DNA from: a virus | Taxonomy: Duplodnaviria; Caudoviricetes | Strand: one strand, 5' to 3' | DNA length: 64,000 nucleotides | Virus record (IMG/VR): IMGVR_UViG_3300005805_000059 | Location: 1 to 64,000 of that record | Shown: one piece after another, positions 241 to 22,990 of the stretch | Position numbering within the stretch: the stretch's first letter is position 1 | Layout of the letters: every line of letters starts with the position of its first letter | Program-made: the position numbers and the translations under genes | The notes under the pieces: generated by a model | Seen by the model: only the letters and a program-made list of their open reading frames with translations | Told to the model about the DNA's origin: nothing | Databases searched by the model: none

Positions 241-262
241 TGTCAGACCCCTCTGCCATAAT
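241..262 (+). promoter_or_regulatory. Early promoter, TGTCAG-N10-CATAAT
   Basis: Repeated motif; ATG at 269 lies 7 nt past the -10 hexamer. Confidence 0.8.
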
Positions 263-304
263 AAGACTATGAAAGATAAAGAAAGTCTCTTGAAAGGAGA
301 ACTA

Positions 305-448
305 ATGTTTAGTTTCAAAGTTTATTTCGTAGATGGTTCTATTTGGTATCTTGATACCGATAAAGACCCATTAGAAGTTTGTGAAGTCGCAGGACTTCTT
401 GATGAGGTAGTTTCAGTTGAAACTATCGGAGAATTGGTAGGTGCTTGA
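305..448 (+). CDS. Small hypothetical protein, 47 aa (possible in-frame leaderless start at 269)
   Basis: Hand-read ORF with AAAGGAGA SD, below the ORF-track cutoff. Confidence 0.65.
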   Translation: MFSFKVYFVDGSIWYLDTDKDPLEVCEVAGLLDEVVSVETIGELVGA

Positions 449-612
449 TGTTTGCAGTAAGTGTCTATCCTCATAATGATAATGCTATGCCTTTCAAATT
501 ACTTTTCAATGAGTATGCTGAAATGCGTGAGTATTGTGATGCTCTTGAAAATAAAAAATGCGATTTCTTTGTTATGGAATTTCCAAACGAAGTTCGTGGA
601 AAATTAGACTAG
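448..612 (+). CDS. Small hypothetical protein, 54 aa
   Basis: Hand-read ORF, TGATG coupling to upstream gene. Confidence 0.65.
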   Translation: MFAVSVYPHNDNAMPFKLLFNEYAEMREYCDALENKKCDFFVMEFPNEVRGKLD

Positions 613-623
613 AAAGGTAAACT

Positions 624-809
624 ATGTTAGATAAAATTATTTTGTCAATCGTGTTTGCAATGTTTGCAATCGTTACATTTTTTGTATTCGATTTTATTCG
701 TCTCGCATACAATAGTGATGTGTACAGTAACGCATTGCTAGTTGTGTTAGGTGTGTTGATGATTTTTGCAAATTTGCTAATCGGCATCCTCGTGAAGTCC
801 CTAAAATAA
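624..809 (+). CDS. Small membrane protein (2 TM)
   Basis: ORF with AAAGG SD and two hydrophobic stretches. Confidence 0.7.
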   Translation: MLDKIILSIVFAMFAIVTFFVFDFIRLAYNSDVYSNALLVVLGVLMIFANLLIGILVKSLK

Positions 810-877
810 AAAGGGACTAATCGGGCAGGGTGCATGCATTTTGCATGGATCGGATCTGCATGGCGTGAGCATGCACC

Positions 878-941
878 TGTGGATAACTTTGTGGATAAGT
901 CTGGGTATCCTGTGGACAGCCTGTGGATAGTGTGTGGATAA
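878..941 (-). promoter_or_regulatory. Array of five same-orientation DnaA boxes
   Basis: TGTGGATAA (rc TTATCCACA) at 878, 890, 933; TGTGGACAG at 911; TGTGGATAG at 922. Confidence 0.8.
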
Positions 942-1017
942 GTTTACGAGGAGCCTTACGAAAGCCCTGAAAATTTTCCCCGAAATTTGAAATAGGACAA
1001 AATAGGACAAAGAGCGA

Positions 1018-1039
1018 TGTCAGACCCTAGTGCTATCAT
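1018..1039 (+). promoter_or_regulatory. Early promoter, TGTCAG-N10-TATCAT
   Basis: Repeated motif; leaderless ATG at 1046. Confidence 0.8.
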
Positions 1040-1045
1040 AATCCT

Positions 1046-1168
1046 ATGAAAAATAAAAGAACAGCCGAACACCAGCGAAGGGTCTTGGAACTTCGCAGGT
1101 CTAATGCTAGTACCCCTATTCAATCCAAGAAGGCTTACAAGCGTAAGTCAAAATACCCTCAATGGTGA
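1046..1168 (+). CDS. Leaderless 40 aa basic peptide
   Basis: Hand-read ORF MKNKRTAEHQRRVLELRRSNASTPIQSKKAYKRKSKYPQW. Confidence 0.65.
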   Translation: MKNKRTAEHQRRVLELRRSNASTPIQSKKAYKRKSKYPQW

Positions 1169-1190
1169 TGTCAGACCCTCGTGGTAAAAT
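1169..1190 (+). promoter_or_regulatory. Early promoter, TGTCAG-N10-TAAAAT
   Basis: Repeated motif. Confidence 0.8.
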
Positions 1191-1218
1191 AGCACTACCC
1201 AAAACAGAAAGGCAACAA

Positions 1219-1359
1219 ATGGCAAAAAAAACATTCACAGTTTCGTTTGAAGGCTACACATTCGTAGAAGCCTATGACGAAGACCACGCAAAGCAATTAG
1301 TAGATGAAATTCTAATTGACGCAGTACACGAATTCGCAATTCTAGATGTAGAGGAATAA
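1219..1359 (+). CDS. Small hypothetical protein
   Basis: ORF 1162..1359; start moved to the ATG after GAAAGG SD. Confidence 0.7.
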   Translation: MAKKTFTVSFEGYTFVEAYDEDHAKQLVDEILIDAVHEFAILDVEE

Positions 1360-1360
1360 A

Positions 1361-1483
1361 ATGGAATATCAAGTAACAGTAATTTCTACCTATTGGGTAG
1401 ATGCAGAAACACCCGAACAAGCAAGACGAATTGTAAAGCAAGGCAAAGTAAAGCCTGAAGATGTAACAGTAGAGGTGAACTAA
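1361..1483 (+). CDS. Small hypothetical protein, 40 aa
   Basis: Hand-read ORF with GAGG SD filling the operon gap. Confidence 0.6.
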   Translation: MEYQVTVISTYWVDAETPEQARRIVKQGKVKPEDVTVEVN

Positions 1484-1788
1484 TGGGAGCAAACTTTGCA
1501 CACGAAATGGCAAGTGGAGAGTTAGACTTTCTAAACCTTCCACTAGAAGCACAAATGGAAATTCACCTTCGTGGTAATTTCTATCCACCAATTCCACTTT
1601 CAATGGTTACCCCTTGCGTAGAGGCTATCCAAGCGTATTGGGAAGATGACTATCAGAGAATGATTAGTCTGCCTTCGCCTGTACAATGGCGTGGTCAAGA
1701 TGAAGCACCTGCAAGTGCAATTATTGACGGACACAAACTCTATGAGTGGACAGTTGAATACGACTATGATGCAGAAATTGAGGAATAA
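1483..1788 (+). CDS. Hypothetical protein
   Basis: ORF with GAGGTG SD, coupled to neighbours. Confidence 0.8.
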   Translation: MGANFAHEMASGELDFLNLPLEAQMEIHLRGNFYPPIPLSMVTPCVEAIQAYWEDDYQRMISLPSPVQWRGQDEAPASAIIDGHKLYEWTVEYDYDAEIEE

Positions 1789-1959
1789 ATGAAAGTAACA
1801 ATAGTACAAGCACTAAATGAACAATTCAAGAAAGTACAAGAAGAACTCGCAGAAAATGGTGCAGAGTTATCTGACTATGATATGGGCTTTGAGGAAGGCT
1901 ATCTCGCAGGTCTGATGTACGCAATTCAGTTTGTCAAAGAAATAGTAGATGGAGAATAA
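1789..1959 (+). CDS. Small hypothetical protein, 56 aa
   Basis: Hand-read ORF abutting upstream stop. Confidence 0.65.
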   Translation: MKVTIVQALNEQFKKVQEELAENGAELSDYDMGFEEGYLAGLMYAIQFVKEIVDGE

Positions 1960-1960
1960 A

Positions 1961-2116
1961 ATGAAAAGATACACAGTTTGGGTGGGTGGCTCAGAGGTAA
2001 ACTCTAGCCTACTCTCCAAAAAGCAAGCAACTGAGATCGCATCTGAATGGTGGACTAATGGCTATGAAGATGTAGAAATTGAGAAAGTTTCTTTATTTAG
2101 TTTAATAAAGAAGTAG
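1961..2116 (+). CDS. Small hypothetical protein, 51 aa
   Basis: Hand-read ORF with GGAG SD. Confidence 0.6.
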   Translation: MKRYTVWVGGSEVNSSLLSKKQATEIASEWWTNGYEDVEIEKVSLFSLIKK

Positions 2117-2129
2117 CAGGATTTGACAA

Positions 2130-2151
2130 TGTCAGACCCCTGTGGTAAGAT
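2130..2151 (+). promoter_or_regulatory. Early promoter, TGTCAG-N10-TAAGAT, with TTGACA -35 at 2123
   Basis: TTGACA-17 nt-TAAGAT with the conserved motif in the spacer. Confidence 0.85.
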
Positions 2152-2199
2152 ACTCGTATTGAGAAAGTCTCAATCGTAATAACAAAGATAGGAAGCAAA

Positions 2200-2385
2200 A
2201 TGACACAAAAAACTCTAAATGTTGGAGATACCTTCAAGACCTTGAAGAGTGGTGTTACAGGAGTAATCAAAGAAATTATTCCAAATCAGTCTGGCTCGGC
2301 TCGTATTCTTTTAGATGTAAAAGGAAAAGACCGTTGGACTACTTACAAGCCTTCAGTAGAGGTCTTGTCCGTTGCTGTAAAGTAA
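2200..2385 (+). CDS. Small hypothetical protein (SH3/KOW-like size and composition)
   Basis: ORF with AGGAAG SD. Confidence 0.7.
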   Translation: MTQKTLNVGDTFKTLKSGVTGVIKEIIPNQSGSARILLDVKGKDRWTTYKPSVEVLSVAVK

Positions 2386-2395
2386 CTTCATAGAG

Positions 2396-2478
2396 GGTGT
2401 GGAGAGATTGCGTACTCTCTCTCCACCCCACTCCTTTCTGATAGACCCCCCTCGGGAGTAATATCCTGGTGGGGGGTC
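2396..2478 (+). terminator. Two GC-rich hairpins after the gene (putative terminator or structured RNA)
   Basis: GGGTGTGGAGAGA...TCTCTCCACCCC and GACCCCCC...GGGGGGTC followed by ACTTTT. Confidence 0.45.
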
Positions 2479-2558
2479 ACTTTTATATCGGTGGGGGATC
2501 ATATCCTGGTGAGGGATGAAATGTGCATGCAGCGGGGGACAAATCGGACACGCAGCCG

Positions 2559-2580
2559 TGTCAGACCCCTATGCTAAAGT
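2559..2580 (+). promoter_or_regulatory. Early promoter, TGTCAG-N10-TAAAGT
   Basis: Repeated motif; ATG at 2587 is 7 nt downstream. Confidence 0.8.
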
Positions 2581-2586
2581 ATCCCT

Positions 2587-3048
2587 ATGAAAACAATGAA
2601 AGGTATCAAAATGAATCACTCCTCAGAAGCAATCGAATCAGCAAAAGCAACAGCAGACTTTACAGGCTGGAATTTAGATGAATACGCAAGTGCAAGAAAT
2701 TGGACAGGTGTAGGATTAGTTGGAATTTCTCAACATCGTGATAGTGACGCAGTTGAACGCTCTAACTTTGATGCAGTACGACAAGCAATTGAAAATTTGT
2801 ATGGCGAAGACTCAGTAGATGTAGTATCTTTTGGTCATTGGGCTTTTGGTTGGGTTGAAATACTTGCGTATGACTATGAAAATGTAGAATTATCATTCAT
2901 TGAGAGTATTCACAAATCACTTCAAGACTATGCAATCTATGATGAATTTCTATGGTCTGAGTATGAGTGGGCAGACAACCATCCAGCAGAGGATAATGTT
3001 TGCTACTCCGATGATGTATGCCCCTGCGAATTAGAAAAGGCTTGGTAG
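2587..3048 (+). CDS. Hypothetical phage protein
   Basis: 153 aa ORF; alternative SD-led start at 2611. Confidence 0.8.
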   Translation: MKTMKGIKMNHSSEAIESAKATADFTGWNLDEYASARNWTGVGLVGISQHRDSDAVERSNFDAVRQAIENLYGEDSVDVVSFGHWAFGWVEILAYDYENVELSFIESIHKSLQDYAIYDEFLWSEYEWADNHPAEDNVCYSDDVCPCELEKAW

Positions 3049-3073
3049 ATCGGACAAATCGGACATTTCCGTA

Positions 3074-3095
3074 TGTCAGACCCTACTGCTAAAAT
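3074..3095 (+). promoter_or_regulatory. Early promoter, TGTCAG-N10-TAAAAT
   Basis: Repeated motif. Confidence 0.8.
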
Positions 3096-3129
3096 AGTAA
3101 CACAAACCCAAACCCGAAAGGAAAAACAA

Positions 3130-3507
3130 ATGGCAGATTATTCTCCCGACCTAACAACAGAACTACACAAGAAAGTTGCATCTCTGCAAGCAGAAGTTGA
3201 TGTTCTAAAATCAGTTGCAAACAATTACAAGACTAAGATAGATAAAACTAAATTTATCTTGAAGTCACTTATTGAAATGGCTGAAATTGACAATGATGAA
3301 GCAATTACTGAACTCAATCAAATTCTTGACTTGGAACTCAATAGAGAAGTTACCTATGAAATTCACGCTGTTGTTCAGGTAACAGTTGAATTACCTTATG
3401 GCGAACACCCATCAGAATACGACTTTGACATTACCGAAGTGCAATACAACGGAGACAGTCTAGAAATCGTATCCTCAGACATTAGCCATCTAGAACTTCT
3501 AGACTAA
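3130..3507 (+). CDS. Hypothetical protein, N-terminal coiled coil
   Basis: ORF 3073..3507; start moved to the ATG after GAAAGGA SD. Confidence 0.8.
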   Translation: MADYSPDLTTELHKKVASLQAEVDVLKSVANNYKTKIDKTKFILKSLIEMAEIDNDEAITELNQILDLELNREVTYEIHAVVQVTVELPYGEHPSEYDFDITEVQYNGDSLEIVSSDISHLELLD

Positions 3508-3529
3508 TGTCAGACCCTACTGCTAGAAT
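3508..3529 (+). promoter_or_regulatory. Early promoter, TGTCAG-N10-TAGAAT
   Basis: Repeated motif. Confidence 0.8.
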
Positions 3530-3558
3530 AAATCCACTCACTAACGAAAGGCAATAAA

Positions 3559-3870
3559 ATGGATAAATTCACCCCCACCCTAGAAACTGTATTCCTTATG
3601 CAAGAGGCTTGTCAAGAAGGATTACACGACCTCAATGTCAAAGACGCTGTTGTTGATGTGTTGCAAAACTATCAAGAACTTACAGTAGATGAAATGGCTG
3701 TAATGTTGTTCAATGTTTGTGCAAATGTCTCTGCAAGTGTTGGCTCTGCACTCGCTGTTGCTCTGTTTGATACCGACAAATTAGACGAAGTAGTGCTTGA
3801 ACTCAATGAGCAAGAGAAAAATGCTATGGACGCAGAACTACAACACATAATTGAAAACTTTCACGAATAG
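3559..3870 (+). CDS. Hypothetical helical protein
   Basis: ORF with GAAAGG SD. Confidence 0.8.
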   Translation: MDKFTPTLETVFLMQEACQEGLHDLNVKDAVVDVLQNYQELTVDEMAVMLFNVCANVSASVGSALAVALFDTDKLDEVVLELNEQEKNAMDAELQHIIENFHE

Positions 3871-3883
3871 AGGGTGAATGGGT

Positions 3884-3910
3884 ACACCTGAGCAAGTGTC
3901 TAAACTGCTC
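3884..3910 (+). ncRNA. Putative H-type pseudoknot, copy 1
   Basis: ACAC/GTGT stem, loop CTGAGCAA, GAGCA/TGCTC second stem; second copy at 5605. Confidence 0.55.
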
Positions 3911-3921
3911 CCTTTCAAAAA

Positions 3922-3993
3922 GGTCTGTTAGTTAAGTGGTTATAACTTATGCTTGTCACGCATAGATCACGAGTTCGATTCTCGTACAGACCG
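3922..3993 (+). tRNA. tRNA-Asp(GUC)
   Basis: Acceptor GGTCTGT/ACAGACC, anticodon arm TATGC-TTGTCAC-GCATA, GTTCGATTC T-loop, G73. Confidence 0.9.
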
Positions 3994-4057
3994 CCCAGGA
4001 TCGGTGCATGGTGTGCATGCCCGCCCCCAGGAATCGGACAAATCAGGCAAATCTCAA

Positions 4058-4079
4058 TGTCAGACCTATGGTCTAAAAT
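4058..4079 (+). promoter_or_regulatory. Early promoter, TGTCAG-N10-TAAAAT
   Basis: Repeated motif. Confidence 0.8.
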
Positions 4080-4109
4080 AAGCCTAACAAATAAACTGAA
4101 AGGAAAAAA

Positions 4110-4547
4110 ATGGGTTCAAGAGTAAATTTTGCATTCAAAACAGAAAATAAAAACTATGTCGTATTGTATTCACATTGGGGTGGAGAAGATAGGTTCAATT
4201 TATTATCCAATGCCCTTGAAGCATCACGCCCACGCTGGAATGATAATTCATACGCAATTCGTATCGCCATCTCATCTATCGTTGGAAACAATTGGAATTC
4301 TGAAACAGGCTTTGGAATTTATGTCAATGAAATTGGAGACTACAACTATGAAACTTTTGTAGTTGATTTTGAAAATAAAACTATCGGAATTCACGAGAGT
4401 GGTCTTTACATAAATCACACAGTCAAGCACATTGAAGAATACCCTGTAATCTCAATGACATTTGATGAATTCCTAAATAGTAATCACGACTTCGAAGGTC
4501 TGATTGAGGGCATTCGTGAGATTTGGGAACAGACATCTCCAAAATAG
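4110..4547 (+). CDS. Hypothetical phage protein
   Basis: ORF with GAAAGGA SD; N-terminal MGSR..VVLYSHWGG pattern. Confidence 0.8.
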   Translation: MGSRVNFAFKTENKNYVVLYSHWGGEDRFNLLSNALEASRPRWNDNSYAIRIAISSIVGNNWNSETGFGIYVNEIGDYNYETFVVDFENKTIGIHESGLYINHTVKHIEEYPVISMTFDEFLNSNHDFEGLIEGIREIWEQTSPK

Positions 4548-4568
4548 GACATTTCGGGCATTTGACTA

Positions 4569-4590
4569 TGTCAGACCCTAATGATAAAAT
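4569..4590 (+). promoter_or_regulatory. Early promoter, TGTCAG-N10-TAAAAT, with TTGACT -35
   Basis: TTGACT-17 nt-TAAAAT. Confidence 0.85.
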
Positions 4591-4621
4591 AGTTTAGTAA
4601 AACATAAACGAAAGGTAATAA

Positions 4622-5599
4622 ATGCATAATCTAGAAATGATAAATGGCAATGCAAGTTTCGTATCTCTGCGAGAACCTGCTTGGCATAACTTAGGCACAG
4701 TAATTCAAAATGAAGTAACTACATCAGAAATGTTGGAACTTGCAAATCTTGATAACTGGAATGTCCGAGTTGAAGAAATCCCAATGCCTGATAACTACAC
4801 TACAAAAAACCCATCATTTTGGGTAGTGCGTAATCACCCTGCAAATAATAATCCTGACATTCTTGCAACTGTTGGTAAGCGTTACACAGCATTTCAGAAT
4901 GAAGAGTTATTTGCTTTTGGTGATACCCTGCTTGATGGTGGTCGTTGGGAAACTGCTGGCTCTATCAAAAATGGTCGTGTTGTCTTTGGCTCACTTGCAC
5001 TAGATAGAGAAATTGTCCTTGACCCAAATGGTGTTGAGGATAAAGTGAACACCTATCTTTTGGTTACTACATCTCACGATGGCTCATTGTCTATTCAGGC
5101 AATTACCACTCCTGTTCGTGTAGTTTGCCAAAACACTCACACAGTTGCTCTCAAGGGTGCAAAGCAAAGTTTCAAAGTGCGACACACTCAGACGCTTGAT
5201 GGTCGTGTACAAGAAGCACGAGAAGCATTAGGTCTTGCACACAAGTATCTTGACGCATTTGAGATTGAAGCACAGCAACTTATTCAAACTGAAATTACTA
5301 AAGCACAGTTTGATAAGATTGTAGAACTTGCTTATCCAATGCCTGAGAAAGATGTCAAGGGTGCAATGACTAAGTGGGCTAACAAGGTAGATGTTCTACA
5401 AGACTTGTATGTTGGTAGCACTAACCTAATGATTGCAGGAACAGCGTGGGGTGCTTACAATGCCCTCACCGAGCGTTTGGATTGGTTCAGAACAGCACGA
5501 GGTAACTCTGAGAAGCCTTATGTTTCTGCATCAGGTCTTGACCTTGCAACCAACAATGAGAAGCAGAGACTACTAGAGATTGTAAAATCGGTAGCGTAA
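4622..5599 (+). CDS. DUF932 / TIGR03299-like phage-plasmid protein
   Basis: Motifs REPAWHNLG, WETAGSIKNG, TTSHDGS, TPVRVVCQNT, HTQT, GTAWGAYNA. Confidence 0.85.
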   Translation: MHNLEMINGNASFVSLREPAWHNLGTVIQNEVTTSEMLELANLDNWNVRVEEIPMPDNYTTKNPSFWVVRNHPANNNPDILATVGKRYTAFQNEELFAFGDTLLDGGRWETAGSIKNGRVVFGSLALDREIVLDPNGVEDKVNTYLLVTTSHDGSLSIQAITTPVRVVCQNTHTVALKGAKQSFKVRHTQTLDGRVQEAREALGLAHKYLDAFEIEAQQLIQTEITKAQFDKIVELAYPMPEKDVKGAMTKWANKVDVLQDLYVGSTNLMIAGTAWGAYNALTERLDWFRTARGNSEKPYVSASGLDLATNNEKQRLLEIVKSVA

Positions 5600-5604
5600 C
5601 TGCG

Positions 5605-5632
5605 ACAACCTGAGCAAGTTGTAAAACTGCTC
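5605..5632 (+). ncRNA. Putative H-type pseudoknot, copy 2
   Basis: ACAAC/GTTGT stem (compensatory to copy 1), identical loop, GAGCA/TGCTC stem. Confidence 0.55.
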
Positions 5633-5660
5633 CCACCTCATCACGGAAAAGGAAAACACA

Positions 5661-5852
5661 ATGGATCAATTAAAAACATTTTACATCTTAATCGAATACT
5701 GCTGCAACCATTTTGAAGGTGTGTATTCAGAATGGGAATTTCCACAATTAGCAAAAAATATTTTGGGTGAGAATTTTAAATTTGATACATTCGAAGAATT
5801 GAATGCTGCACTTAATAAAGAAGGTTACACACTAAGTAAATACACAATTTAA
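5661..5852 (+). CDS. Small hypothetical protein
   Basis: ORF with AAGGA SD. Confidence 0.65.
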   Translation: MDQLKTFYILIEYCCNHFEGVYSEWEFPQLAKNILGENFKFDTFEELNAALNKEGYTLSKYTI

Positions 5853-5854
5853 AT

Positions 5855-6040
5855 CCCAGGATCCAGGGGCGGGCATGCTGTGCATGCACCCCCACCCCAT
5901 TTGTCCAAATTTATTTATTTAGTCATTTCAAATCAATTACGAACCTATCAAATTTTTCCCAGGAATTACGAAGGCAAAAAAAATTTCCCCAAAACCTATT
6001 TAAGATCTTAGGGAAATTACGATGGAGTTTATTTTATCCT
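5855..6040. repeat. Non-coding motif island at the convergence of the two early blocks
   Basis: CCAGGATCC, two GCATGC, rc-GGACAAAT, three TTACGA, AAATTTTTCCC tracts. Confidence 0.6.
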
Positions 6041-6044
6041 GGAA

Positions 6045-6320
6045 TTAGTCAGGATTATTTTCATTCCACCAATCAATGACTTCATCTAATGACTCAAATT
6101 CTGTATCATCTAATTGCATTGCTTGTGATAATACTTCCCAAGTTTCATTTATCCATCTATTTCCAGCATCTGTTAGTTCAACTAATTCTGATGATACAAA
6201 GTATGCAAGTGGTAAGCCAATGTCATTGTATTCTATGAATTCTTTGTATGTCTCATCTTGTTTGAACCTAATCCAAAATTCCCCTAGAATTTTACACTTA
6301 TTAGAAAAGGGTGTTGCCAT
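6045..6320 (-). CDS. Hypothetical protein
   Basis: ORF overlapping the upstream gene end. Confidence 0.8.
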   Translation of the reverse strand: MATPFSNKCKILGEFWIRFKQDETYKEFIEYNDIGLPLAYFVSSELVELTDAGNRWINETWEVLSQAMQLDDTEFESLDEVIDWWNENNPD

Positions 6321-6528
6321 TATTTTTATCCTCTCGTAGTTTTCTTACTTGTTCTATTCTATCACACTCTTGGTAAGCACTCTCTGCCACCTCGTGCATT
6401 CTAGTAATTATTGCTTGTGGTGCTACCCTTGCCAAATAGAAGCCTAGCATTCTCGTATCTAGCATAAAATCGGATAGCAATGAAATAACCTTTAGTGCTG
6501 CTTTTTCTTCATTAGTTTTACCAAACAT
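6301..6528 (-). CDS. Hypothetical protein
   Basis: ORF with GGAG SD. Confidence 0.75.
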   Translation of the reverse strand: MFGKTNEEKAALKVISLLSDFMLDTRMLGFYLARVAPQAIITRMHEVAESAYQECDRIEQVRKLREDKNNGNTLF

Positions 6529-6544
6529 TGTTTCTCCTATCCTC

Positions 6545-6573
6545 TATTGTATCAGAAAATGGGGGCAAAGTCA
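6545..6573 (-). promoter_or_regulatory. Approximate position of a sigma-A-type promoter TTGACT-17-TACAAT (spans about 6546-6574)
   Basis: rc TTGACTTTGCCCCCATTTTCTGATACAAT. Confidence 0.55.
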
Positions 6574-6601
6574 ATACCCTACCCCCACTCTCTTTCCCTA
6601 C

Positions 6602-7078: not shown

Positions 7079-7114
7079 TTTTGTTTCCTTTCGTTAGTAG
7101 TTGTAGGGATAGTA

Positions 7115-7136
7115 ATAATAGCACAGGGGTCTGACA
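7115..7136 (-). promoter_or_regulatory. Early promoter, TGTCAG-N10-TATTAT
   Basis: Repeated motif on the minus strand. Confidence 0.8.
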
Positions 7137-7166
7137 TACCCCCGATCAATGGGTAGGATGTACCCC

Positions 7167-7856: not shown

Positions 7857-8131
7857 TAGTTTCCTTTCGTAGTAGGTGGGGTAATACTAGCATAAGGGTC
7901 TGACATCCCTCGTAAAACCTCTTGTAACTGTATGTACAGTTCAAGGTCAATGTTTGTTAGTTCTCTTAGTAATGGGGCATCTACATCATCTAGCCTTATC
8001 CACTCATAGTCTGTGTAACTGTAAATACTTCCATCTGCAAAGATTGCTGTATCAAGGTCTGCATTTGCATACCATCCATACCCTTTGCGATAAGAAACTA
8101 CAAAGTTATGTTCAAGGTCGTTATTCTCCAA
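7856..8131 (-). CDS. Hypothetical protein
   Basis: ORF coupled to neighbours. Confidence 0.7.
   Translation of the reverse strand: MENNDLEHNFVVSYRKGYGWYANADLDTAIFADGSIYSYTDYEWIRLDDVDAPLLRELTNIDLELYIQLQEVLRGMSDPYASITPPTTKGN
7884..7905 (-). promoter_or_regulatory. Early promoter, TGTCAG-N10-TAGTAT
   Basis: Repeated motif inside the 3' end of the upstream gene. Confidence 0.75.
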
Positions 8132-8381: not shown

Positions 8382-8403
8382 ACCTTACCATAGGGGTATG
8401 ACA
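8382..8403 (-). promoter_or_regulatory. Early promoter variant, TGTCAT-N10-TAAGGT
   Basis: Repeated motif. Confidence 0.7.
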
Positions 8404-9142: not shown

Positions 9143-9315
9143 GCCTCTAAGGAGTGAAATGTAAAGTTATCGCCTGTATTGTAGCAGTAGGCTATGACAT
9201 TGTCTAGGTATTCCGAAGAGAATAATGGATTTATTACATCTTCCCCATAAACTTCAAAATAGTTATTCTTTGTCTGTGGTATGACGGTATGGTCAAACTC
9301 ATAGATGTTCAACAA
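9121..9315 (-). CDS. Small hypothetical protein
   Basis: ORF track; start uncertain. Confidence 0.6.
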   Translation of the reverse strand: MLNIYEFDHTVIPQTKNNYFEVYGEDVINPLFSSEYLDNVIAYCYNTGDNFTFHSLEAWEREHG

Positions 9316-9812: not shown

Positions 9813-9834
9813 ACCTTATCATAGGGGTCTGACA
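9813..9834 (-). promoter_or_regulatory. Early promoter, TGTCAG-N10-TAAGGT
   Basis: Repeated motif. Confidence 0.8.
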
Positions 9835-10264: not shown

Positions 10265-10286
10265 AACCTACCATAATAGTCTGACA
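10265..10286 (-). promoter_or_regulatory. Early promoter, TGTCAG-N10-TAGGTT
   Basis: Repeated motif. Confidence 0.7.
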
Positions 10287-10427
10287 TTGTCAAATCAGAA
10301 TCCCCCATAAAAAATGTGATGTTCGTCACACGGCTGCATGAATTTCTAAATAATTAGACATGCAGCAATGTCGGATTTGTCCAAATTGCCCTATTCCCAA
10401 ATTGGGGTATCCTTTTTAAAAATACCT

Positions 10428-10950: not shown

Positions 10951-11118
10951 ATGAGTGAACAAATCAAAGCAGATTTGGCACAGTATCTCTCTCAATTCCT
11001 ATCAGGCAAACACCGTATCGGCAAAGCACATAAAATCATTAATATGATATGGGACATAGCCTATGAACAAGGTAAAGACTCTTGTTGTTCTACTAGGGAT
11101 TGTTGTAGTCATTCTTGA
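10951..11118 (+). CDS. Small leaderless protein, Cys-rich C-terminus, 55 aa
   Basis: Hand-read ORF; TATACT -10 lies 7 nt upstream. Confidence 0.55.
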   Translation: MSEQIKADLAQYLSQFLSGKHRIGKAHKIINMIWDIAYEQGKDSCCSTRDCCSHS

Positions 11119-11149
11119 TACCCCGCCAAATTTGTGATACAATTAGGGT

Positions 11150-12565: not shown

Positions 12566-12587
12566 TGTCAGACCCATCCTGTATAAT
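12566..12587 (+). promoter_or_regulatory. Early-type promoter, TGTCAG-N10-TATAAT
   Basis: Repeated motif; leaderless ATG at 12594. Confidence 0.8.
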
Positions 12588-15920: not shown

Positions 15921-15930
15921 ACCTTTTCCT

Positions 15931-15963
15931 AAAATAAGGGGCGAGCCAGTTACGACCCGCCCC
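15931..15963 (-). terminator. Intrinsic terminator after holin
   Basis: GGGGCGGGTC...GGCTCGCCCC followed by TTATTTT. Confidence 0.65.
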
Positions 15964-15979
15964 AAATCATTATTTAGTT

Positions 15980-16640: not shown

Positions 16641-16897
16641 TTCTTATCTCCTAATGGTTCTCTAGTTACTAATACAATAGCACCATTTTGTTCTAGTGCA
16701 TTTTTTACTTTTGCTACATATTGTACCGCTTCAATTTTTTCATCATGTGTTAAATGTAGAAAACTTTTCTCATCTAACTTGATTGTAATAAAATGCTCAC
16801 TGTCTATGAGATTTATTCCAAACCGTTTTGGCGGTGTAATAGAATGAAATGCTCTACGCATTGCATCTGTATAATACATTATTCTTCTCTCTTCCAA
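16637..16897 (-). CDS. Hypothetical protein
   Basis: ORF in operon. Confidence 0.75.
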   Translation of the reverse strand: MEERRIMYYTDAMRRAFHSITPPKRFGINLIDSEHFITIKLDEKSFLHLTHDEKIEAVQYVAKVKNALEQNGAIVLVTREPLGDKK

Positions 16898-17094
16898 TGT
16901 ATATAAGATCTAATATATACTGCTGCATATGCTGCTGCAGAAATAATAAATCCATACTGTTTGGTGCTGAGTGCATATGCAATCCATATACATTCGTTAG
17001 CCAATAGAATTAGCCATCCCCAAACGGTTTTCTTGCCAACAAAAAATATACCTGTGATACCAATAGCAGCAAGTATCCATGACCAATATTCCAT
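16879..17094 (-). CDS. Small 3-TM PnuC-like membrane protein
   Basis: W-rich three-helix pattern GKKTVWGW...WIAYA...YGF...YIHW. Confidence 0.6.
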   Translation of the reverse strand: MEYWSWILAAIGITGIFFVGKKTVWGWLILLANECIWIAYALSTKQYGFIISAAAYAAVYIRSYIHWKREE

Positions 17095-17095
17095 C

Positions 17096-17374
17096 TTAAT
17101 CCAATGTTAGTGATTTCCAGACTTCAGCCCACTCAGGCTTTTTTCTGTGCTTATTAAATTCTCTTGAGATGTTTCCATTTTCCAAATAGACACCACCCCA
17201 TACTCCCCATTCTTTGTTAGATACTCCAACAGCAAAACACATTTTTCTAACAGGACATTGAGCACATAATGCATCAATGGCATGTCGTTTGCTGATGTCT
17301 TCTTCGTATGTATCAAAGAATAAGTTGATATCATAACCTACACACGATCCTTTAAGTTTCCAGTCATCTTTCAT
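17096..17374 (-). CDS. whiB: WhiB-family transcription factor
   Basis: C-x(n)-CxxCPVRxxC and G(V)WGG motif. Confidence 0.9.
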   Translation of the reverse strand: MKDDWKLKGSCVGYDINLFFDTYEEDISKRHAIDALCAQCPVRKMCFAVGVSNKEWGVWGGVYLENGNISREFNKHRKKPEWAEVWKSLTLD

Positions 17375-17588
17375 TTTCTTTCCCTAGATATTTGGAAGGT
17401 AACTTCCAGCCTTTCTCAGTTGGCTCAAATCGCTTTTGCATATGCCATTTACCATTTGCAAACGCACCAAACTTGCTAGTCATACCCTTCTTATTAGGAA
17501 TACGCTCTACTACAGTCCATCCATCCCAATGCAAATCCTTGTTTGCAGAGACGATAGACTCCATTTGTTCTAGTGTTGTAATATACAT
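17364..17588 (-). CDS. Hypothetical protein
   Basis: ORF in operon. Confidence 0.75.
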   Translation of the reverse strand: MYITTLEQMESIVSANKDLHWDGWTVVERIPNKKGMTSKFGAFANGKWHMQKRFEPTEKGWKLPSKYLGKENER

Positions 17589-17596
17589 ACTATTCC

Positions 17597-17947
17597 TTAG
17601 TATTGAAATATTCCGACTTCAATATTAGCATCTTCTGCTAATTTTGTCAATCTCGAAACAGGTTGTTTTGGTTTAGATAAAAACGCAAAGTAATCAATGT
17701 TACCTATTTGTTCCTCTACAAATGACTGGGGAACTTTAAAGTATTTGACTTTCTTACCCCTAGCCTTAAAACTTCGCTCACTAATATTTGAAAACTGTGA
17801 CACGAAAGAATTAATATTCGCTGGTCCAACTGAATAGATGACGACTTGTTTATCATCATCTGCCATATCGGACAACGCTACACTGATAGCACGAAGAAAT
17901 ACATTATAATCATCAAAATCATTTGTACCCTGTACTGCCACAATCAT
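17597..17947 (-). CDS. SLOG/YspA-like protein
   Basis: IVAVQGTNDFDDY N-terminal SLOG-like loop, Rossmannoid pattern. Confidence 0.55.
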   Translation of the reverse strand: MIVAVQGTNDFDDYNVFLRAISVALSDMADDDKQVVIYSVGPANINSFVSQFSNISERSFKARGKKVKYFKVPQSFVEEQIGNIDYFAFLSKPKQPVSRLTKLAEDANIEVGIFQY

Positions 17948-17949
17948 TT

Positions 17950-18348
17950 TTATTCCTTTAATGCGTCTAATATAAATAACATTTTTTCTAATTCAGACTT
18001 TGACATAGACTCTGTATTGATTGGTTGAATACTATCTTGATCCACTTCATCACCAATTACTTGTGCTGTATAGAAGATATTGTCCTGTACCCAATAGATA
18101 CTATCGCCTTCCATAACAACATTGACTGCGTTTTCCTCAAGGTATTCTTCAATTTCATCTTCTATATCAAATTCTTCATCATCTTCTTGAATAGATGCTG
18201 GCTGTGGTAGATATGGTCTCACCAACTCATACCGTTCGCTTTGTGACAAATAGTTAAAAGATGTTTTAAATCTATTTGTGATCTTATTCATAAAGAAGAA
18301 AAGCGGTAGTATGCAAACAAAAGTAACAAATGCCACCAAGTATGACAT
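17950..18348 (-). CDS. Membrane-anchored acidic hypothetical protein
   Basis: N-terminal TM. Confidence 0.75.
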   Translation of the reverse strand: MSYLVAFVTFVCILPLFFFMNKITNRFKTSFNYLSQSERYELVRPYLPQPASIQEDDEEFDIEDEIEEYLEENAVNVVMEGDSIYWVQDNIFYTAQVIGDEVDQDSIQPINTESMSKSELEKMLFILDALKE

Positions 18349-18367
18349 ACTACCACCTCCGAATTAT

Positions 18368-18535
18368 TTATTCTTTAGTTTTTTTATTAGATAACTTATC
18401 TTCTACAGGAGATTCCACCACTGGTGGTCTACTCAATTTGAGTTGTACTGACAGAAGTTGAGTTTCTAATTCAACTGAACGATTACGATAAAATGCGACT
18501 AACTGTTTTAGTTCATCTACGGTTAGATCTTCCAT
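18368..18535 (-). CDS. Small coiled-coil protein, 55 aa
   Basis: Hand-read ORF MEDLTVDELKQ... with AAAGGGA SD. Confidence 0.6.
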   Translation of the reverse strand: MEDLTVDELKQLVAFYRNRSVELETQLLSVQLKLSRPPVVESPVEDKLSNKKTKE

Positions 18536-18537
18536 TG

Positions 18538-19608
18538 TTATCCCTTTCTAATTTGAAATGGTGTACCGTCCCAGACCTTCTGAGACTTGTTTTTCTCTCT
18601 ATTAACGATTGCACGACTCCAAGAGAATCCTGCATCGCCACCCCATGCTAACCACATTATTTTGCCATTAGATGGGTTCTCACTATTATCCCAGTCTTTT
18701 CCTTTTTTGTCAACTTCGTGACGAGAAAAGTAGGAATACATTCTCTTAACTGTGCTAAGAGACAGCGGTTCCTTATTTGCTAACTGACGAGCACGAGTCC
18801 AACCAACTGCAGTACCTGCACCTGTTGCCTTGCCGTCTTCTTTATATTTGATAGCCCTACGAGCAGCAGAAGCCATAGCATCAGTAGGTGTAAATGTTTC
18901 TGCTTTTTCAAACTTATCCATATCCATATCGTCATCTTCATCATCCATCATATGACCTTCAAGACTATCTAGTCTCTCTGCATCTTGATACATCATACCA
19001 ATGCTATATGGTGTTGCCATCCATTCGCCATCTTCTTCTTCGTATAAACGAACAGACATTGCTGGATTTTCTGGTGGCATTGATTCAAGTGCGAATTCAT
19101 CTCCTGGAGTTCCGAGAGTTCCACCTTCCCACATAATATGTTCTACTCTACCGTGAGCCATACCATCGACTGTCATACCCATTACGAAGTCACCTTCTTT
19201 AATCTCTTGAACAGCCTTTTCTTTTTCTTCTTCGTGGTAAGCCTTCTCTGCCCTGTATGTTCCACCTCTACGCTTATATTCTTGGACTACCCAAGAGTTA
19301 GCAACAGCAGATGGATATACATCAAACTTACGCTTTGCTTCTGCAACAATTCTATTATAGAGTTCTCTATTAGTTGGCTCTCCTCGTCTACCAGACAAGA
19401 ATGAACCATAGTTAGGTTTCTTAGCCTTACCAAATGCTGAACCATCCCAAATGTCTTTATCTATGTTACCTTCAGACTGATTAATTGCATAGATCTGGGC
19501 AGCAGCCTCTTCTTTAGTTTTGTGGCAACCCATTACAGTACCGTCATCTTTTACGGCAGGGTAGCCTGAGCAACCGTATGAACCTTTTTTACCTACACTA
19601 TATGGCAT
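18538..19608 (-). CDS. Multi-domain putative head-associated protein (DUF5872-like, Tudor-like and C-terminal WGG domain)
   Basis: YPSAVANSWVVQEYKRRGG; EIKEGDFV..HGRVE; GWTRARQLA..MYSYFSRH..WLAWGGDAG. Confidence 0.6.
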   Translation of the reverse strand: MPYSVGKKGSYGCSGYPAVKDDGTVMGCHKTKEEAAAQIYAINQSEGNIDKDIWDGSAFGKAKKPNYGSFLSGRRGEPTNRELYNRIVAEAKRKFDVYPSAVANSWVVQEYKRRGGTYRAEKAYHEEEKEKAVQEIKEGDFVMGMTVDGMAHGRVEHIMWEGGTLGTPGDEFALESMPPENPAMSVRLYEEEDGEWMATPYSIGMMYQDAERLDSLEGHMMDDEDDDMDMDKFEKAETFTPTDAMASAARRAIKYKEDGKATGAGTAVGWTRARQLANKEPLSLSTVKRMYSYFSRHEVDKKGKDWDNSENPSNGKIMWLAWGGDAGFSWSRAIVNREKNKSQKVWDGTPFQIRKG

Positions 19609-19624
19609 ACTACTATTATACCAC

Positions 19625-19963
19625 CTAATCTAATCTACTTATGCGTTTAATTTCCTCAAGATGGAATCTATAGTCTTTATCCAAATTGGCTAGTTCTTCG
19701 GGATCAAGAGCCTTTTCAGTAATCCTAATCTTCATATCTCCATCTTCATCATTTCTAATATCTACAAAGCCTAAGTTCCATAGTTCTAAAACTGCAATCT
19801 CAATATGCTCTTTGTGGATATCTACCATATCTGGGAACATCTCTGCCATCTTGGGTGTAAAGTTATATAAGAACTCTCCTGATTCAGTTAGCCCACCAAT
19901 TTCTACTGCCCCATTAAGAATAAGAAATTCTAGAAAATCGTCTTCTCTATTTTCTTCGCTCAT
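19625..19963 (-). CDS. Hypothetical protein
   Basis: ORF in operon. Confidence 0.75.
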   Translation of the reverse strand: MSEENREDDFLEFLILNGAVEIGGLTESGEFLYNFTPKMAEMFPDMVDIHKEHIEIAVLELWNLGFVDIRNDEDGDMKIRITEKALDPEELANLDKDYRFHLEEIKRISRLD

Positions 19964-20181
19964 TTGATAAATTCTCTTTCATCTAATACCTGATATGCAA
20001 ACTCAGTTAACTTCTTTGCACCTTCAGGATCATTTATAATTTTATTATAGTGGTGTCCACAAAATAATAGTTCACCTGTCATACCCTTTACTAACACAAA
20101 CGCCTGAGCATCACATCTGTCACAACGATCTGCAACCTTTAGTATTTGCTCTTTCTTATCTTCAATCACTTCTTCAGTCAT
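19960..20181 (-). CDS. Small Zn-binding actinobacterial-type protein (DRCDRC...FCGHH)
   Basis: CxxC and CxHH motifs; start moved to MTEEV. Confidence 0.7.
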   Translation of the reverse strand: MTEEVIEDKKEQILKVADRCDRCDAQAFVLVKGMTGELLFCGHHYNKIINDPEGAKKLTEFAYQVLDEREFIK

Positions 20182-20182
20182 C

Positions 20183-20368
20183 TCACTTCTTCCTGTTATC
20201 TGTCGAATAAAAACCATTACCATTAAATTGTATACCAACATTGCCCCATTGTCTAATCATAACAGTGTGACACTTATCACAAAGTGCTTCTAATGAAGAT
20301 TCATCAAATGATCTTTTAATATCAAACACCTCATTACAAGTGCCACACTTATATGAATAGACTGGCAT
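20183..20368 (-). CDS. FmdB-family zinc-ribbon protein
   Basis: MPVYSYKC..C ... C..C ... FNGNGFYSTD. Confidence 0.85.
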   Translation of the reverse strand: MPVYSYKCGTCNEVFDIKRSFDESSLEALCDKCHTVMIRQWGNVGIQFNGNGFYSTDNRKK

Positions 20369-21156
20369 TATAAAGCCTTTGCTCCAAACAATCCACCACT
20401 GGTTTCAGTAGCAGTTAATTTATCCCATTGCTTTTTAGTAATAACGCCATCGGCTTCTGGGGCAAGTTTCTTATGTTCCTTTTGCCAAGCAATTACAGCC
20501 TTTTTAGTTACTGGACCATACTGACCATCAACTAACTTACCTCTAAATCCAAGTGCTTTTTGAATTACTTTAATGTATTCTCCAACTTCACCTGGTTGAA
20601 TTGGTATTCCTGGAAATGCTTTTGGATCAATTGGTTTTTCTTGTTTTGGTACAGAAGGTTTAAAGTTTGGACGACCAAACCCAACAACACTTACTGTAAT
20701 ACCACGCTTATTTTTCTTATAAGCACGAACCTTTACAAGAACCATACCACCATTTCGCTGGTCTCCTGTAACACCTGCTGTGTTTCCTTCAATAGTGGTT
20801 ACAGTACCGTCACCATTATTTTTAACAACAATTCCAACATGAGAAACACGGTCAACACCGTCTCCAGGAAAGTCCATATAGCATATATCTCCTGGTTGTG
20901 GATTTGCAACTGATGCATCTTCCCAACGCTTTACTCGCTTAAAGTGTGCTACACCAGCAGGTGTATAAACAGTAGAGCCTGGAAGTTTAACTCCAGCCTT
21001 ATTTGCACACCACATAATGAATGAGCCACACCACGGTAAAAAGTTATATCCTGTAAAAGCACCATACTTAGTTTGGTTGTCTTTTGGACCTTCTACAGTA
21101 CCAACTTCTTTTTTAGCAACCTCAATTAATCTGGCTGCTGTTCCTAGTTTTGCCAT
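20368..21156 (-). CDS. Endolysin (CHAP amidase plus peptidoglycan-binding domain)
   Basis: PWCGSF, PQPGD, HVGIV, TIEGNT; C-terminal DGQYGPVT..AVIAWQ. Confidence 0.9.
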   Translation of the reverse strand: MAKLGTAARLIEVAKKEVGTVEGPKDNQTKYGAFTGYNFLPWCGSFIMWCANKAGVKLPGSTVYTPAGVAHFKRVKRWEDASVANPQPGDICYMDFPGDGVDRVSHVGIVVKNNGDGTVTTIEGNTAGVTGDQRNGGMVLVKVRAYKKNKRGITVSVVGFGRPNFKPSVPKQEKPIDPKAFPGIPIQPGEVGEYIKVIQKALGFRGKLVDGQYGPVTKKAVIAWQKEHKKLAPEADGVITKKQWDKLTATETSGGLFGAKAL

Positions 21157-21183
21157 TTTATCCTCCTTAGATAATTATAGCAG

Positions 21184-21254
21184 AGCCTCCTGACAGAATC
21201 GAACTGTCACTTACGCATTACAAGTGCGTTACACTACCATTATGTTAAGGAGGC
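21184..21254 (-). tRNA. tRNA-Thr(UGU), CCA not encoded
   Basis: Acceptor GCCTCCT/AGGAGGC, anticodon loop CTTGTAA, GACAG-TTCGATT-CTGTC T-arm. Confidence 0.9.
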
Positions 21255-21740
21255 AACTGGCTGACTATGTGTTACCCAAAAATAGGTACAGCCCTTATCT
21301 GGGCAACAGACATACTCCATAAAGTATTGACCCTCATCCCTATACTGTGCGTAATGGTCTGGATCTTTCTGCCATAGTCTGCCACGATGAGTAATGATAA
21401 TGCGTTCTGCTAACTCTGAGTCTTGCATCCATACAGGCATTGTGTATGGTTGATCAACAAAGTTACGCTGGTATGTATCTTTGATTACTGCCCAGTTGTT
21501 TTCCCACTTATACTTACGATGTTGCATCTCATTGCGAATAGCCTTGAGATAAAAATACAAATCGTGTTCAGCACCCTCAAACATTTTGACTGCTGGATGA
21601 TTACGCCACGCATTGCTAGGAGACTCCTTTGCTAACACTGACATAATCTGACGACCTTCTAGCAACTGCTTGACAAGTCGTTTGTAATCTAATACTTCAG
21701 CACACAGACTAAAGTCTGACTCTGGAATAAATACCTGCAT
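21240..21740 (-). CDS. Pyrimidine-dimer DNA glycosylase / endonuclease V-like
   Basis: MQVF..LDYKRLVKQLLEGRQI, WRNHPAVKMF, THRGRL..KDPDHY. Confidence 0.85.
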   Translation of the reverse strand: MQVFIPESDFSLCAEVLDYKRLVKQLLEGRQIMSVLAKESPSNAWRNHPAVKMFEGAEHDLYFYLKAIRNEMQHRKYKWENNWAVIKDTYQRNFVDQPYTMPVWMQDSELAERIIITHRGRLWQKDPDHYAQYRDEGQYFMEYVCCPDKGCTYFWVTHSQPVASLT

Positions 21741-21781
21741 TATTTTCCTTACTATCGTTTATACAATTATAGTAAATAAAA

Positions 21782-21809
21782 GAGGGGATGTCAAATCGAC
21801 ACCCCCCTC
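21782..21809 (-). terminator. Intrinsic terminator overlapping a TTGACA-17-TATAAT promoter
   Basis: GAGGGGGGTGTC-GATTT-GACATCCCCTC then TTTT; TTGACA lies in the stem. Confidence 0.7.
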
Positions 21810-21813
21810 AATT

Positions 21814-22245
21814 TTAATATGAACCTGAATCAATATCATCAATTAGATATGAATATTCAGGACAGAGATAGACAATGGCTGCACCTGTGATTGAACCCCA
21901 AGCACCTGCTTCTTCTTCAGTAACTGCATTTTCTACAACTACTTCAACGATATCAGCAATACCGTATCCATCATCAAATAAACCACAGATAGTCCATCCA
22001 TAGTCTAGTAATTCTGAGTCTGATGTACTCAGAATGTATGAGTTTCCAGTACCATTTACAGCATCAAGATAAAGTTCTTCATCTGAATATGATGGAACAT
22101 CTGGAGTATCTGGTGTCCAAGTATTAGTTGGTTCTGGTGCTGGATTAGTATTGTTACTTGAGTTACCTACGCTACCTGCAAAAAATGCTCCAACGAGCAA
22201 TGCAACTACACCAGCAATAATTAGTACATTTTTATTGTTTTTCAT
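21814..22245 (-). CDS. Membrane-anchored DUF732-like protein
   Basis: N-terminal TM, P/T linker, G..IC..FDDG ... AIVYLCP. Confidence 0.7.
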   Translation of the reverse strand: MKNNKNVLIIAGVVALLVGAFFAGSVGNSSNNTNPAPEPTNTWTPDTPDVPSYSDEELYLDAVNGTGNSYILSTSDSELLDYGWTICGLFDDGYGIADIVEVVVENAVTEEEAGAWGSITGAAIVYLCPEYSYLIDDIDSGSY

Positions 22246-22419
22246 TTATATCCTTATTTTAAATACATGAGAACAGGGATCTCCCCCTGCTTCCCACTCG
22301 GCTTCATCTTCTTCACTCATATATGGATCGCCATCATGAGTCGTGCAAAATGGTTCTGTTATCCAACCATTATCTATACCCTGTTTTACCCAGGCATAGA
22401 ATTCTTCTTCTTTTTCCAT
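22246..22419 (-). CDS. Small leaderless hypothetical protein, 57 aa
   Basis: Hand-read ORF MEKEEEFY...FCTTHDGDP...DPCSHV. Confidence 0.65.
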   Translation of the reverse strand: MEKEEEFYAWVKQGIDNGWITEPFCTTHDGDPYMSEEDEAEWEAGGDPCSHVFKIRI

Positions 22420-22423
22420 ATTA

Positions 22424-22942
22424 CTATCCTACCACATCAATCGGTTCTTGGCAAGTTGTGCTATATTTTGTCGCACACTCTAATGCAATCTTTAACCTAC
22501 GCTTTGGGTCTTTATAGTTTTGTGTAGAGAATAAAGAACCAATTGCATATGAACTACCACTTCCTACTGCTAGAAAGTCTGTGTCATATGATGTGATACT
22601 CATATCAGAAATATTATGTTCAAATATTTTTCCACCCACACAAATGAGCATTCCAAATTCATTGCTATCAGACATTGGAATATCCCACTCACTATAAAAT
22701 TCTTTTAATGCTTTACGAAAAGTAGTTTGCATAAATCTATCAACATTGCCTACTACTCGTGGTGGTATAAAATTATGTTTTACTATCTCACCATTAAGAC
22801 GACCATAGTAACCAAATAAATATTCGCCACTACTCCACACCTTTGGACTATCTAATGATAATATGATATCGTCCTCAGATGCAGCACGATCTCCTGCAAT
22901 GTACATTTCCCCATTTTGTACTACTGCTGCTATGCAAGTCAT
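22424..22942 (-). CDS. Ntn-hydrolase, HslV / proteasome beta-subunit-like peptidase
   Basis: MTCIAA with N-terminal Thr, AGD, KV, AVGSGSSYAIG. Confidence 0.8.
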   Translation of the reverse strand: MTCIAAVVQNGEMYIAGDRAASEDDIILSLDSPKVWSSGEYLFGYYGRLNGEIVKHNFIPPRVVGNVDRFMQTTFRKALKEFYSEWDIPMSDSNEFGMLICVGGKIFEHNISDMSITSYDTDFLAVGSGSSYAIGSLFSTQNYKDPKRRLKIALECATKYSTTCQEPIDVVG

Positions 22943-22968
22943 TTTTACCCTTCTCTTTTCGTACCACA

Positions 22969-22990
22969 ATTATACCATCTAGGTATGACA
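22969..22990 (-). promoter_or_regulatory. Promoter variant TGTCAT-N10-TATAAT with TTGACC -35
   Basis: rc CTTGACCGATGTCATACCTAGATGGTATAAT. Confidence 0.7.

Follow-up and report, generated by a model that had tools for sequence, protein, structure and literature searches.

What switches on the early genes of a virus found in lake water, and does the switch belong to the virus or to its host? The question is raised by the first 64,000 nucleotides (nt; hereafter the window) of the 90,046-bp IMG/VR virus record IMGVR_UViG_3300005805_000059 (37% GC), in which the motif TGTCA(G/T)-N10-(T/C)ANNNT recurs ahead of small early genes in the form of the actinobacterial promoters served by PafBC (RecA-NDp), a regulator of the DNA-damage response. 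On present evidence it seems rather probable that a lytic freshwater actinophage has co-opted promoters of the host PafBC type to start or boost its early programme. An earlier note on this stretch had proposed that the early programme is wired to the host damage response, and at the level of sequence the proposal is supported by the spacing of the motif, by its occurrence in related phages, by pafBC genes in candidate hosts, by the same box before host recA and by the lack of a detectable phage activator.

Register and layout of the promoter box

The published PafBC motif, tGTCgg(N10)tA(N3)T, comes without a -35 element, and cryo-electron microscopy places the helix-turn-helix (HTH) of PafB on the -23 to -28 region, where R46 and R50 read two guanines of GTC (PMC8635444). 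PafBC itself is activated by single-stranded DNA (PMC11804915). In the phage, taking the A of a leaderless ATG as +1 puts the -10 element at -12 to -7 and TGTCAG at -28 to -23. The earlier note had seen six promoters with an ATG 7 nt past the -10; the arrangement stands and the count rises to seven (241, 1018, 2559, 8403, 9834, 10286 and 12566), with the ATG 6-7 nt after the -10 and each opening an open reading frame (ORF) of 40-153 codons. Since these seven leaderless starts fix +1, they also fix the register of the box, and the predicted phage geometry matches the published PafB contact region to the base.

The motif is also far more frequent than chance would predict, with 23 matches in the window against 4.98 +/- 2.34 (maximum 10) expected from 100 dinucleotide-preserving shuffles of the window. 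All sixteen sites listed earlier are present at their coordinates (minus-strand sites being given by their 5' ends), and two others, at 9199(-) and 21195(-), had been missed. Five window matches lie inside genes and look like chance (25713, 26116, 33423, 53630 and 59439), which leaves about 18 that we take as true promoters, and four more copies are found beyond the window in the same genome (86252(-), 86372(+), 87616(+) and 88545(+)), so that clear members number about 21 in 90 kb; the strict form of the box, with an extended -10 (TGn), occurs 14 times in the genome. The box reads TGTCAG in 18 of the 21 copies and TGTCAT in the other three, and the 10-nt gap to a TANNNT-type -10 is exact in all of them. 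As the earlier note had remarked, most boxes continue ACCC (TGTCAGACCC occurs 13 times in the genome and its reversed control not once), and TGn is present at 14 of the 16 listed sites (exceptions 4058 and 12566). Every site is co-oriented with a downstream ORF. Copies that are not leaderless are followed by a leader of 17-56 nt, or of 141 nt at 87616, that carries a ribosome site of the GAAAGG type. The information content resides mainly in TGTCAG, TGn and TA...T and the flanks are not conserved, which argues for selection on the signal and against recent copying. An origin by recent duplication of a single cassette was rejected, the flanks differing among copies except in three cassettes at 86-89 kb.

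A -35 element, which the earlier note recognised in about four promoters, does exist in some of them, although the number is six: at 2130, 4569, 8403, 9199, 10286 and 22990 the match to TTGACA is at least 5/6 with a 17-18 bp spacer, and in the remaining 15 of 21 it is at most 4/6. The weakened TGTCAT boxes stand, in three cases of three, beside a -35 of at least 5/6, as against 0 of 15 among promoters lacking one (Fisher probability about 0.015, our own calculation), which fits the box and the -35 being alternative ways of holding polymerase. Strong extended -10 promoters (TGGTATAAT and similar) in middle and late intergenic regions are devoid of the box, and such box-free late and ordinary promoters show that it marks one promoter class (Table 1).

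The members are arranged as a rightward block, from 86.3 kb through the record end to 5.9 kb, and a leftward block, from 10.3 to 6.0 kb, with single copies at 12566 and 22990. The record carries a 99-bp direct terminal repeat (window 1-99 = genome 89948-90046), most simply taken as an assembly overlap of a circular or permuted genome and not as a true end. If the repeat is such an overlap, the early region is probably continuous across coordinate 1, and with the genome closed in this way the members form one contiguous early region.

Table 1. Candidate PafBC-type promoters in the window, box-free promoters for contrast, and the WhiB-like gene.
Feature	Position	Strand	Remarks
PafBC-type early promoter	241..262	+	TGTCAGACCC..TGc CATAAT; leaderless ATG 269
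PafBC-type early promoter	1018..1039	+	two GGACA repeats upstream; leaderless ATG 1046
PafBC-type early promoter	1169..1190	+	28-nt leader with GAAAGG
PafBC-type box plus perfect -35	2130..2151	+	TTGACA, 17-bp spacer
PafBC-type early promoter	2559..2580	+	no -35; leaderless ATG 2587 (153-codon ORF)
PafBC-type early promoter	3074..3095	+	no -35; GGACA at 3052-3056 and 3061-3065
PafBC-type early promoter	3508..3529	+	
PafBC-type early promoter	4058..4079	+	without TGn
PafBC-type promoter of DUF932 gene	4569..4590	+	-35 TTGACT
PafBC-type early promoter	7115..7136	-	no -35
PafBC-type early promoter	7884..7905	-	no -35
Weakened box TGTCAT plus -35 CTGACA	8382..8403	-	leaderless ATG 8375
Weakened box TGTCAT plus -35 TAGACA	9178..9199	-	not in the earlier list
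PafBC-type early promoter	9813..9834	-	no -35; leaderless ATG 9806
Box plus perfect -35 TTGACA	10265..10286	-	leaderless ATG 10257; upstream palindrome 10315-10330
PafBC-type promoter with TATAAT	12566..12587	+	leaderless ATG 12594
Doubtful member	21174..21195	-	box in 3' end of tRNA-Thr; TGcTATAAT ahead of CHAP endolysin gene
Weakened box TGTCAT plus -35 TTGACC	22969..22990	-	18-bp spacer; downstream of terminase gene
Ordinary promoter, no box	11115..11143	+	TTGATA-17-TGnTACAAT; leaderless ATG 11150
Ordinary -35/-10 promoter, no box	6546..6574	-	early region
Late promoter, no box	59458..59538	-	TGGTATAAT, ahead of major capsid gene
WhiB-like gene	17096..17374	-	above Pfam cut-off; actinobacterial host marker

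Several smaller observations attach to these promoters. GGACA forms a pair of direct repeats ahead of several boxes, the first beginning 22-23 nt and the second 13 nt before TGTCAG, or at about -50 and -41 relative to the start site; such repeats lie upstream of 3074, 1018, 2559, 4058 and 4569 and, outside the window, of 86252, 86372 and 88545. In the 70 nt upstream of boxes GGACA occurs 15 times against 1.06 expected, and it is absent from the leftward block (6-10.3 kb). A perfect TGTGA-N6-TCACA palindrome of the CRP/GlxR type (10315-10330) begins 44 nt ahead of the box in promoter 10286, and in the doubtful member at 21195(-) TGTCAG falls within the last 13 nt of a predicted tRNA-Thr gene (region 21174-21254). 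Contigs from RNA libraries cover parts of the early genes in lake RNA, one of them ending 13 nt downstream of the -10 of promoter 7905; contigs of this kind reveal neither the start nor the strand nor the level of a transcript, and they may stem from DNA carry-over.

The phage, its relatives and the search for an activator

Despite its 37% GC, the phage is best classed by its genes and start signals as a tailed actinophage, because it encodes WhiB-like and DUF732 proteins, has Streptomyces phages as kin, and uses GAAAGG-type ribosome sites and leaderless starts. Its DnaE polymerase and capsid protein are 55% and 46% identical, respectively, to those of Streptomyces phages of the Stanwilliamsviridae, LukeCage and BillNye being the closest cultured kin; a search of cultured phages for near-identical DNA gave no match. 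Runs from at least five studies, on lake water and on other freshwater or aquatic samples, contain near-identical DNA, and the capsid protein has thousands of relatives of 75-97% identity in public metagenomes. The gene set includes a class II ribonucleotide reductase, RecA, DnaB, a primase, a pyrimidine-dimer glycosylase, a GMP-reductase-like enzyme and a CHAP endolysin. The phage's own RecA, a Cas4-like PD-(D/E)XK nuclease and the pyrimidine-dimer glycosylase make up a small DNA-damage kit (window 15200-38100, one ORF each; 21240-21740), which adjoins promoters of damage-responsive look. A search for integrases of the tyrosine type, serine recombinases not being covered, found none in the phage, which looks strictly lytic. 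For the same reason, and with the same limit as to serine recombinases, a temperate-phage induction switch was rejected.

Relatives were reached through the capsid protein (72-80% identity), which led to 80 related viral loci, the larger records being searched whole. Box clusters occur in seven of 12 related phage records and in all five that are at least 84% complete; these five have 3-10 loose matches each and 2-7 strict ones, the latter against no control hits, and strict matches are found in two of the seven fragmentary relatives as well. Taken over all seven box-bearing relatives, the strict box occurs 2-7 times in each and its reversed control 0-1 times. The N10 spacing to the -10 is exact here too, and many of the boxes take the classical RecA-NDp form TGTC(A/G)GTGG, as TGTCAGTGG or TGTCGGTGG, others being TGTCAGCCC or TGTCAGACCC. 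The early genes are orthologous across the related phages. One of them, a DUF932 gene (59% protein identity), is boxed in four phages that have kept TTGnnT, TGTCAG, TGn and the -10 and differ in the 7 nt after the box; a search with its protein returned only three distant viral loci. The box is thus conserved across diverged relatives while its flanks drift. LukeCage and BillNye have no excess of the box, and the trait is therefore not general to that lineage. As a side observation, early promoters of relatives (around 8340 and 8470) and host recA promoters (e.g. around 1236) carry GACAC, frequently in the form CGACACGCC or the complement of this, 8-13 nt ahead of the box; GACAC is the published site of WhiA, which works with WhiB (PMC4850268).

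If a phage-made or virion-delivered factor read the box, in the manner of T4 MotA/AsiA, its likeness to the PafBC site would be convergence or spacing mimicry. T4 supplies the precedent of a phage-specific box replacing the -35 (cited in PMC8635444), and more than 50 small early ORFs of this phage are without family assignment. A WhiB-like protein, moreover, is encoded in all five relatives and hence in six of six phages examined, this one included. Members of the WhiB family bind sigma domain 4, and the WhiB-like protein is the sole recognisable transcription factor of the phage; its gene, however, sits inside a long operon with no box of its own. The whole-genome search also tells against a mimic encoded outside the window, which the earlier note had entertained, in that no WYL domain was found anywhere in the 90 kb, nor in the five relatives. 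Sigma region 2 (Sigma70_r2) was sought in this phage alone, with a negative result, and the 53 early ORFs examined contained no HTH, sigma, MotA or AsiA family of Pfam and nothing annotated as a regulator in PHROG. Two further considerations tell against such a factor. Firstly, the box heads the early genes themselves, so that a factor made by the phage could not start them. Secondly, the box core is identical to that of the host recA box described below, and the relatives vary it in actinobacterial style, with A or G at position 5 and then GTG. We regard a phage factor as unlikely, and host PafBC as the better candidate for the reader of the box.

The candidate host and its own boxes

Contigs bearing the capsid gene are mis-binned in lake metagenome-assembled genomes (MAGs) of many phyla, among them an Aquiluna MAG and a 1.3-Mb Actinomycetota MAG that holds a second related phage contig. 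Together with the generic actinobacterial marks of the phage, the contigs binned with the Actinomycetota MAG point, though weakly, to a low-GC freshwater actinobacterium as the probable host, which replaces the mycobacterial framing of the earlier note. The candidate order, reached through that MAG, comprises Actinomycetota with genomes of 1.1-2.2 Mb, a size typical of 'Ca. Nanopelagicales', to which the order may correspond. A DNA search of 151 candidate host genomes returned only tRNA-Thr (79%), an IMPDH-like patch and further phage-like contigs in one MAG, matches that count as weak host evidence. Over about 110 nt, the GMP-reductase/IMPDH-family gene of the phage (window 13102-14100), which lies behind the ordinary promoter at 11115-11143, is 70-78% identical in DNA to candidate host genes; the phage GMP reductase used as a query in genome contigs found no relative. 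The Planktophila phages in culture form another family, of 39 kb and with a sigma factor of its own (PMC10202952), and offer no host link.

The earlier note had advised looking for pafBC in such hosts and comparing the phage boxes with their RecA-NDp motifs, and both comparisons favour host PafBC. Two adjacent WYL genes are present in 41 of 41 sampled genomes of the candidate order, and the one pair that was checked against the references 7P5X and 6SJ9 matches PafB (E 1e-38 to 7P5X) and PafC (E 2e-22), with RMFER, the R46/R50 helix of the guanine-reading arginines, conserved. The same box at the same spacing, TGTC(A/G)G-N10-TANNNT, precedes recA in 26 of 30 genomes of the order and has TGn in most; TGTCAGTGGCGCCTGCTACCTT, with TGn, is the commonest recA form, and CCC variants of the box occur too. 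A LexA box, TCGAACAGATGTTCG, directly follows the recA promoter in 24 of these 26 genomes and lies 22 nt further on in the other two. Many host box promoters resemble those of the phage in being leaderless, their ATG lying 6 nt past the -10.

One must consider whether PafBC is uninvolved and the box is read by some other part of the host machinery, for instance a lineage-specific trait of sigma A, RbpA or CarD, or by a different regulator. The 7 nt after the box and the upstream GGACA/GACAC repeats suggest further contacts, and a host known only by deduction has no established promoter grammar. Host genomes, however, hold 12-18 loose matches each, close to the control count, and 0-3 strict ones (in genomes of 1.3-1.5 Mb). 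Counts this low led us to reject a general sigma-A element, as the box does not belong to host promoters at large. Host boxes, moreover, head recA and repair-type genes (e.g. an OGG-like glycosylase), as expected of PafBC, and a reader other than PafBC strikes us as very improbable.

In candidate host genomes, most boxes cluster in a single region of about 50 kb (439000-490000 in one of them). The genes they precede, several of them leaderless, encode a C5 DNA methylase, two TPR proteins, a trypsin-like protease, the OGG-like glycosylase, a LysM protein and orphans, and the region has the look of a repair or defence island under PafBC control.

This raises the prospect that the phage boxes are mainly decoys, the promoters running on the extended -10 alone while replicated boxes soak up PafBC-polymerase and so blunt the damage response and PafBC-controlled defence genes. 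PafBC binds its own site poorly without polymerase, which counts against a decoy role, and late promoters work box-free, so the box marks a class. The disparity in numbers speaks for decoys, with 14 strict boxes in the phage exceeding the 0-3 per likely host genome, as do the methylase, TPR proteins and protease of the host cluster and the reported effect of PafBC on mycobacteriophage resistance (Rafique 2025, as cited in PMC12848934). Against them, every phage box stands at exact promoter register with a gene behind it, seven of these leaderless, a precision needless for a decoy. Decoy and promoter roles are compatible; that the boxes are mainly decoys we think quite improbable.

A probably borrowed damage switch and its known counterparts

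The preferred account is that host PafBC drives or assists these promoters. They would be hybrids, joining a housekeeping sigma-A -10 (TANNNT, usually extended by TGn) to a -26 element, TGTCAG at -28 to -23, that the PafB HTH would read while PafC holds sigma domain 4 ('sigma adaptation'), as in actinobacteria. Host PafBC, always present and switched on by single-stranded DNA, would then recruit or stabilise host RNA polymerase at about 21 phage promoters of small early genes on both arms of the early region. Some six promoters with a -35 probably fire without PafBC and may start the programme; about fifteen without one should depend on it. The trigger may be single-stranded DNA arising from infection, from breakdown of host DNA or from ultraviolet damage, and in UV-damaged cells the promoters without a -35 would be favoured.

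This account has come through every computational check able to sink it; PafBC binding, PafBC dependence and timing are what we infer from it. Several points nevertheless weigh against it. The link between box and PafBC is drawn from the DNA itself, and the host is deduced from binned contigs and generic actinobacterial marks. Nearly all copies carry an extended -10, an element that in many bacteria needs neither a -35 nor an activator. A -35, which described PafBC promoters do not have, is present in about a third of those of the phage, and PafBC may therefore boost rather than be strictly required. The need of PafBC for single-stranded DNA is odd for the very first genes of a phage, the phage box prefers A at position 5 and ACCC thereafter where the mycobacterial logo has G at position 5, and any of the more than 50 early ORFs of no known function could bind DNA.

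A bolder version can be offered only tentatively, as we doubt it in full: an abundant, world-wide family of lytic lake actinophages would run its whole early programme through host PafBC with no activator of its own; later WhiB, docking like PafC on sigma domain 4, would displace PafBC and switch polymerase to the box-free late promoters; and replicated boxes would starve the host PafBC island.

To our knowledge, PafBC and sigma adaptation have been described solely in the role of a repair switch of the host, and the earlier note's statement that no phage PafBC regulon has been described agrees with the literature searched, in which none was found. If true, this would be the first virus to use a WYL-type single-stranded-DNA sensor as its own ignition, and the classical LexA route would gain a counterpart that works through an activator. 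Lakes commonly contain this phage family, and the bacteria that it probably infects rank among the most abundant in fresh water, so that through such wiring sunlight and DNA damage could bear on how well the phages fare in nature. The purified mycobacterial system recognises this very box, and the idea is open to direct test.

Among known systems, the closest are the PafBC (RecA-NDp) promoters of Mycobacterium and other actinobacteria, which share TGTC(A/G)G at -28 to -23 and an exact N10 to TANNNT (PMC8635444, PMC6789036, PMC11804915), give some leaderless transcripts and include the same box before recA of the candidate host order; most of the phage copies lack a -35. The phage set differs in lying on a lytic phage genome, with about 21 copies in 90 kb, more than in a whole candidate host genome, in its preference for A at position 5 followed by ACCC, in the near-constant TGn, in the third of copies with a -35 and in having no adjoining LexA box; the form TCGAAC-N4-GTTCGA is absent from the 90-kb genome with up to one mismatch allowed. 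T4 middle promoters, with a MotA box at -30 and AsiA ('sigma appropriation'), likewise replace the -35 by a box beside a normal -10 and so mark one temporal class; T4, however, makes its own activator, remodels sigma domain 4 and serves a middle class, whereas here the class is early, no phage activator was found and the box is that of the host. Phage genes wired to LexA/RecA and the SOS response, through lambda-type repressor cleavage or LexA boxes, share the tie between expression and a host DNA-damage signal, but work by loss of a repressor, mostly in prophage induction, where the present phage would take an activator route and has no LexA box or tyrosine integrase that could be found. BrxR and CapW, WYL regulators of defence islands, and Caulobacter DriD are similarly single-stranded-DNA sensors that link DNA damage or phage attack to transcription; they regulate host genes, whereas this phage appears to borrow the sensor for genes of its own.

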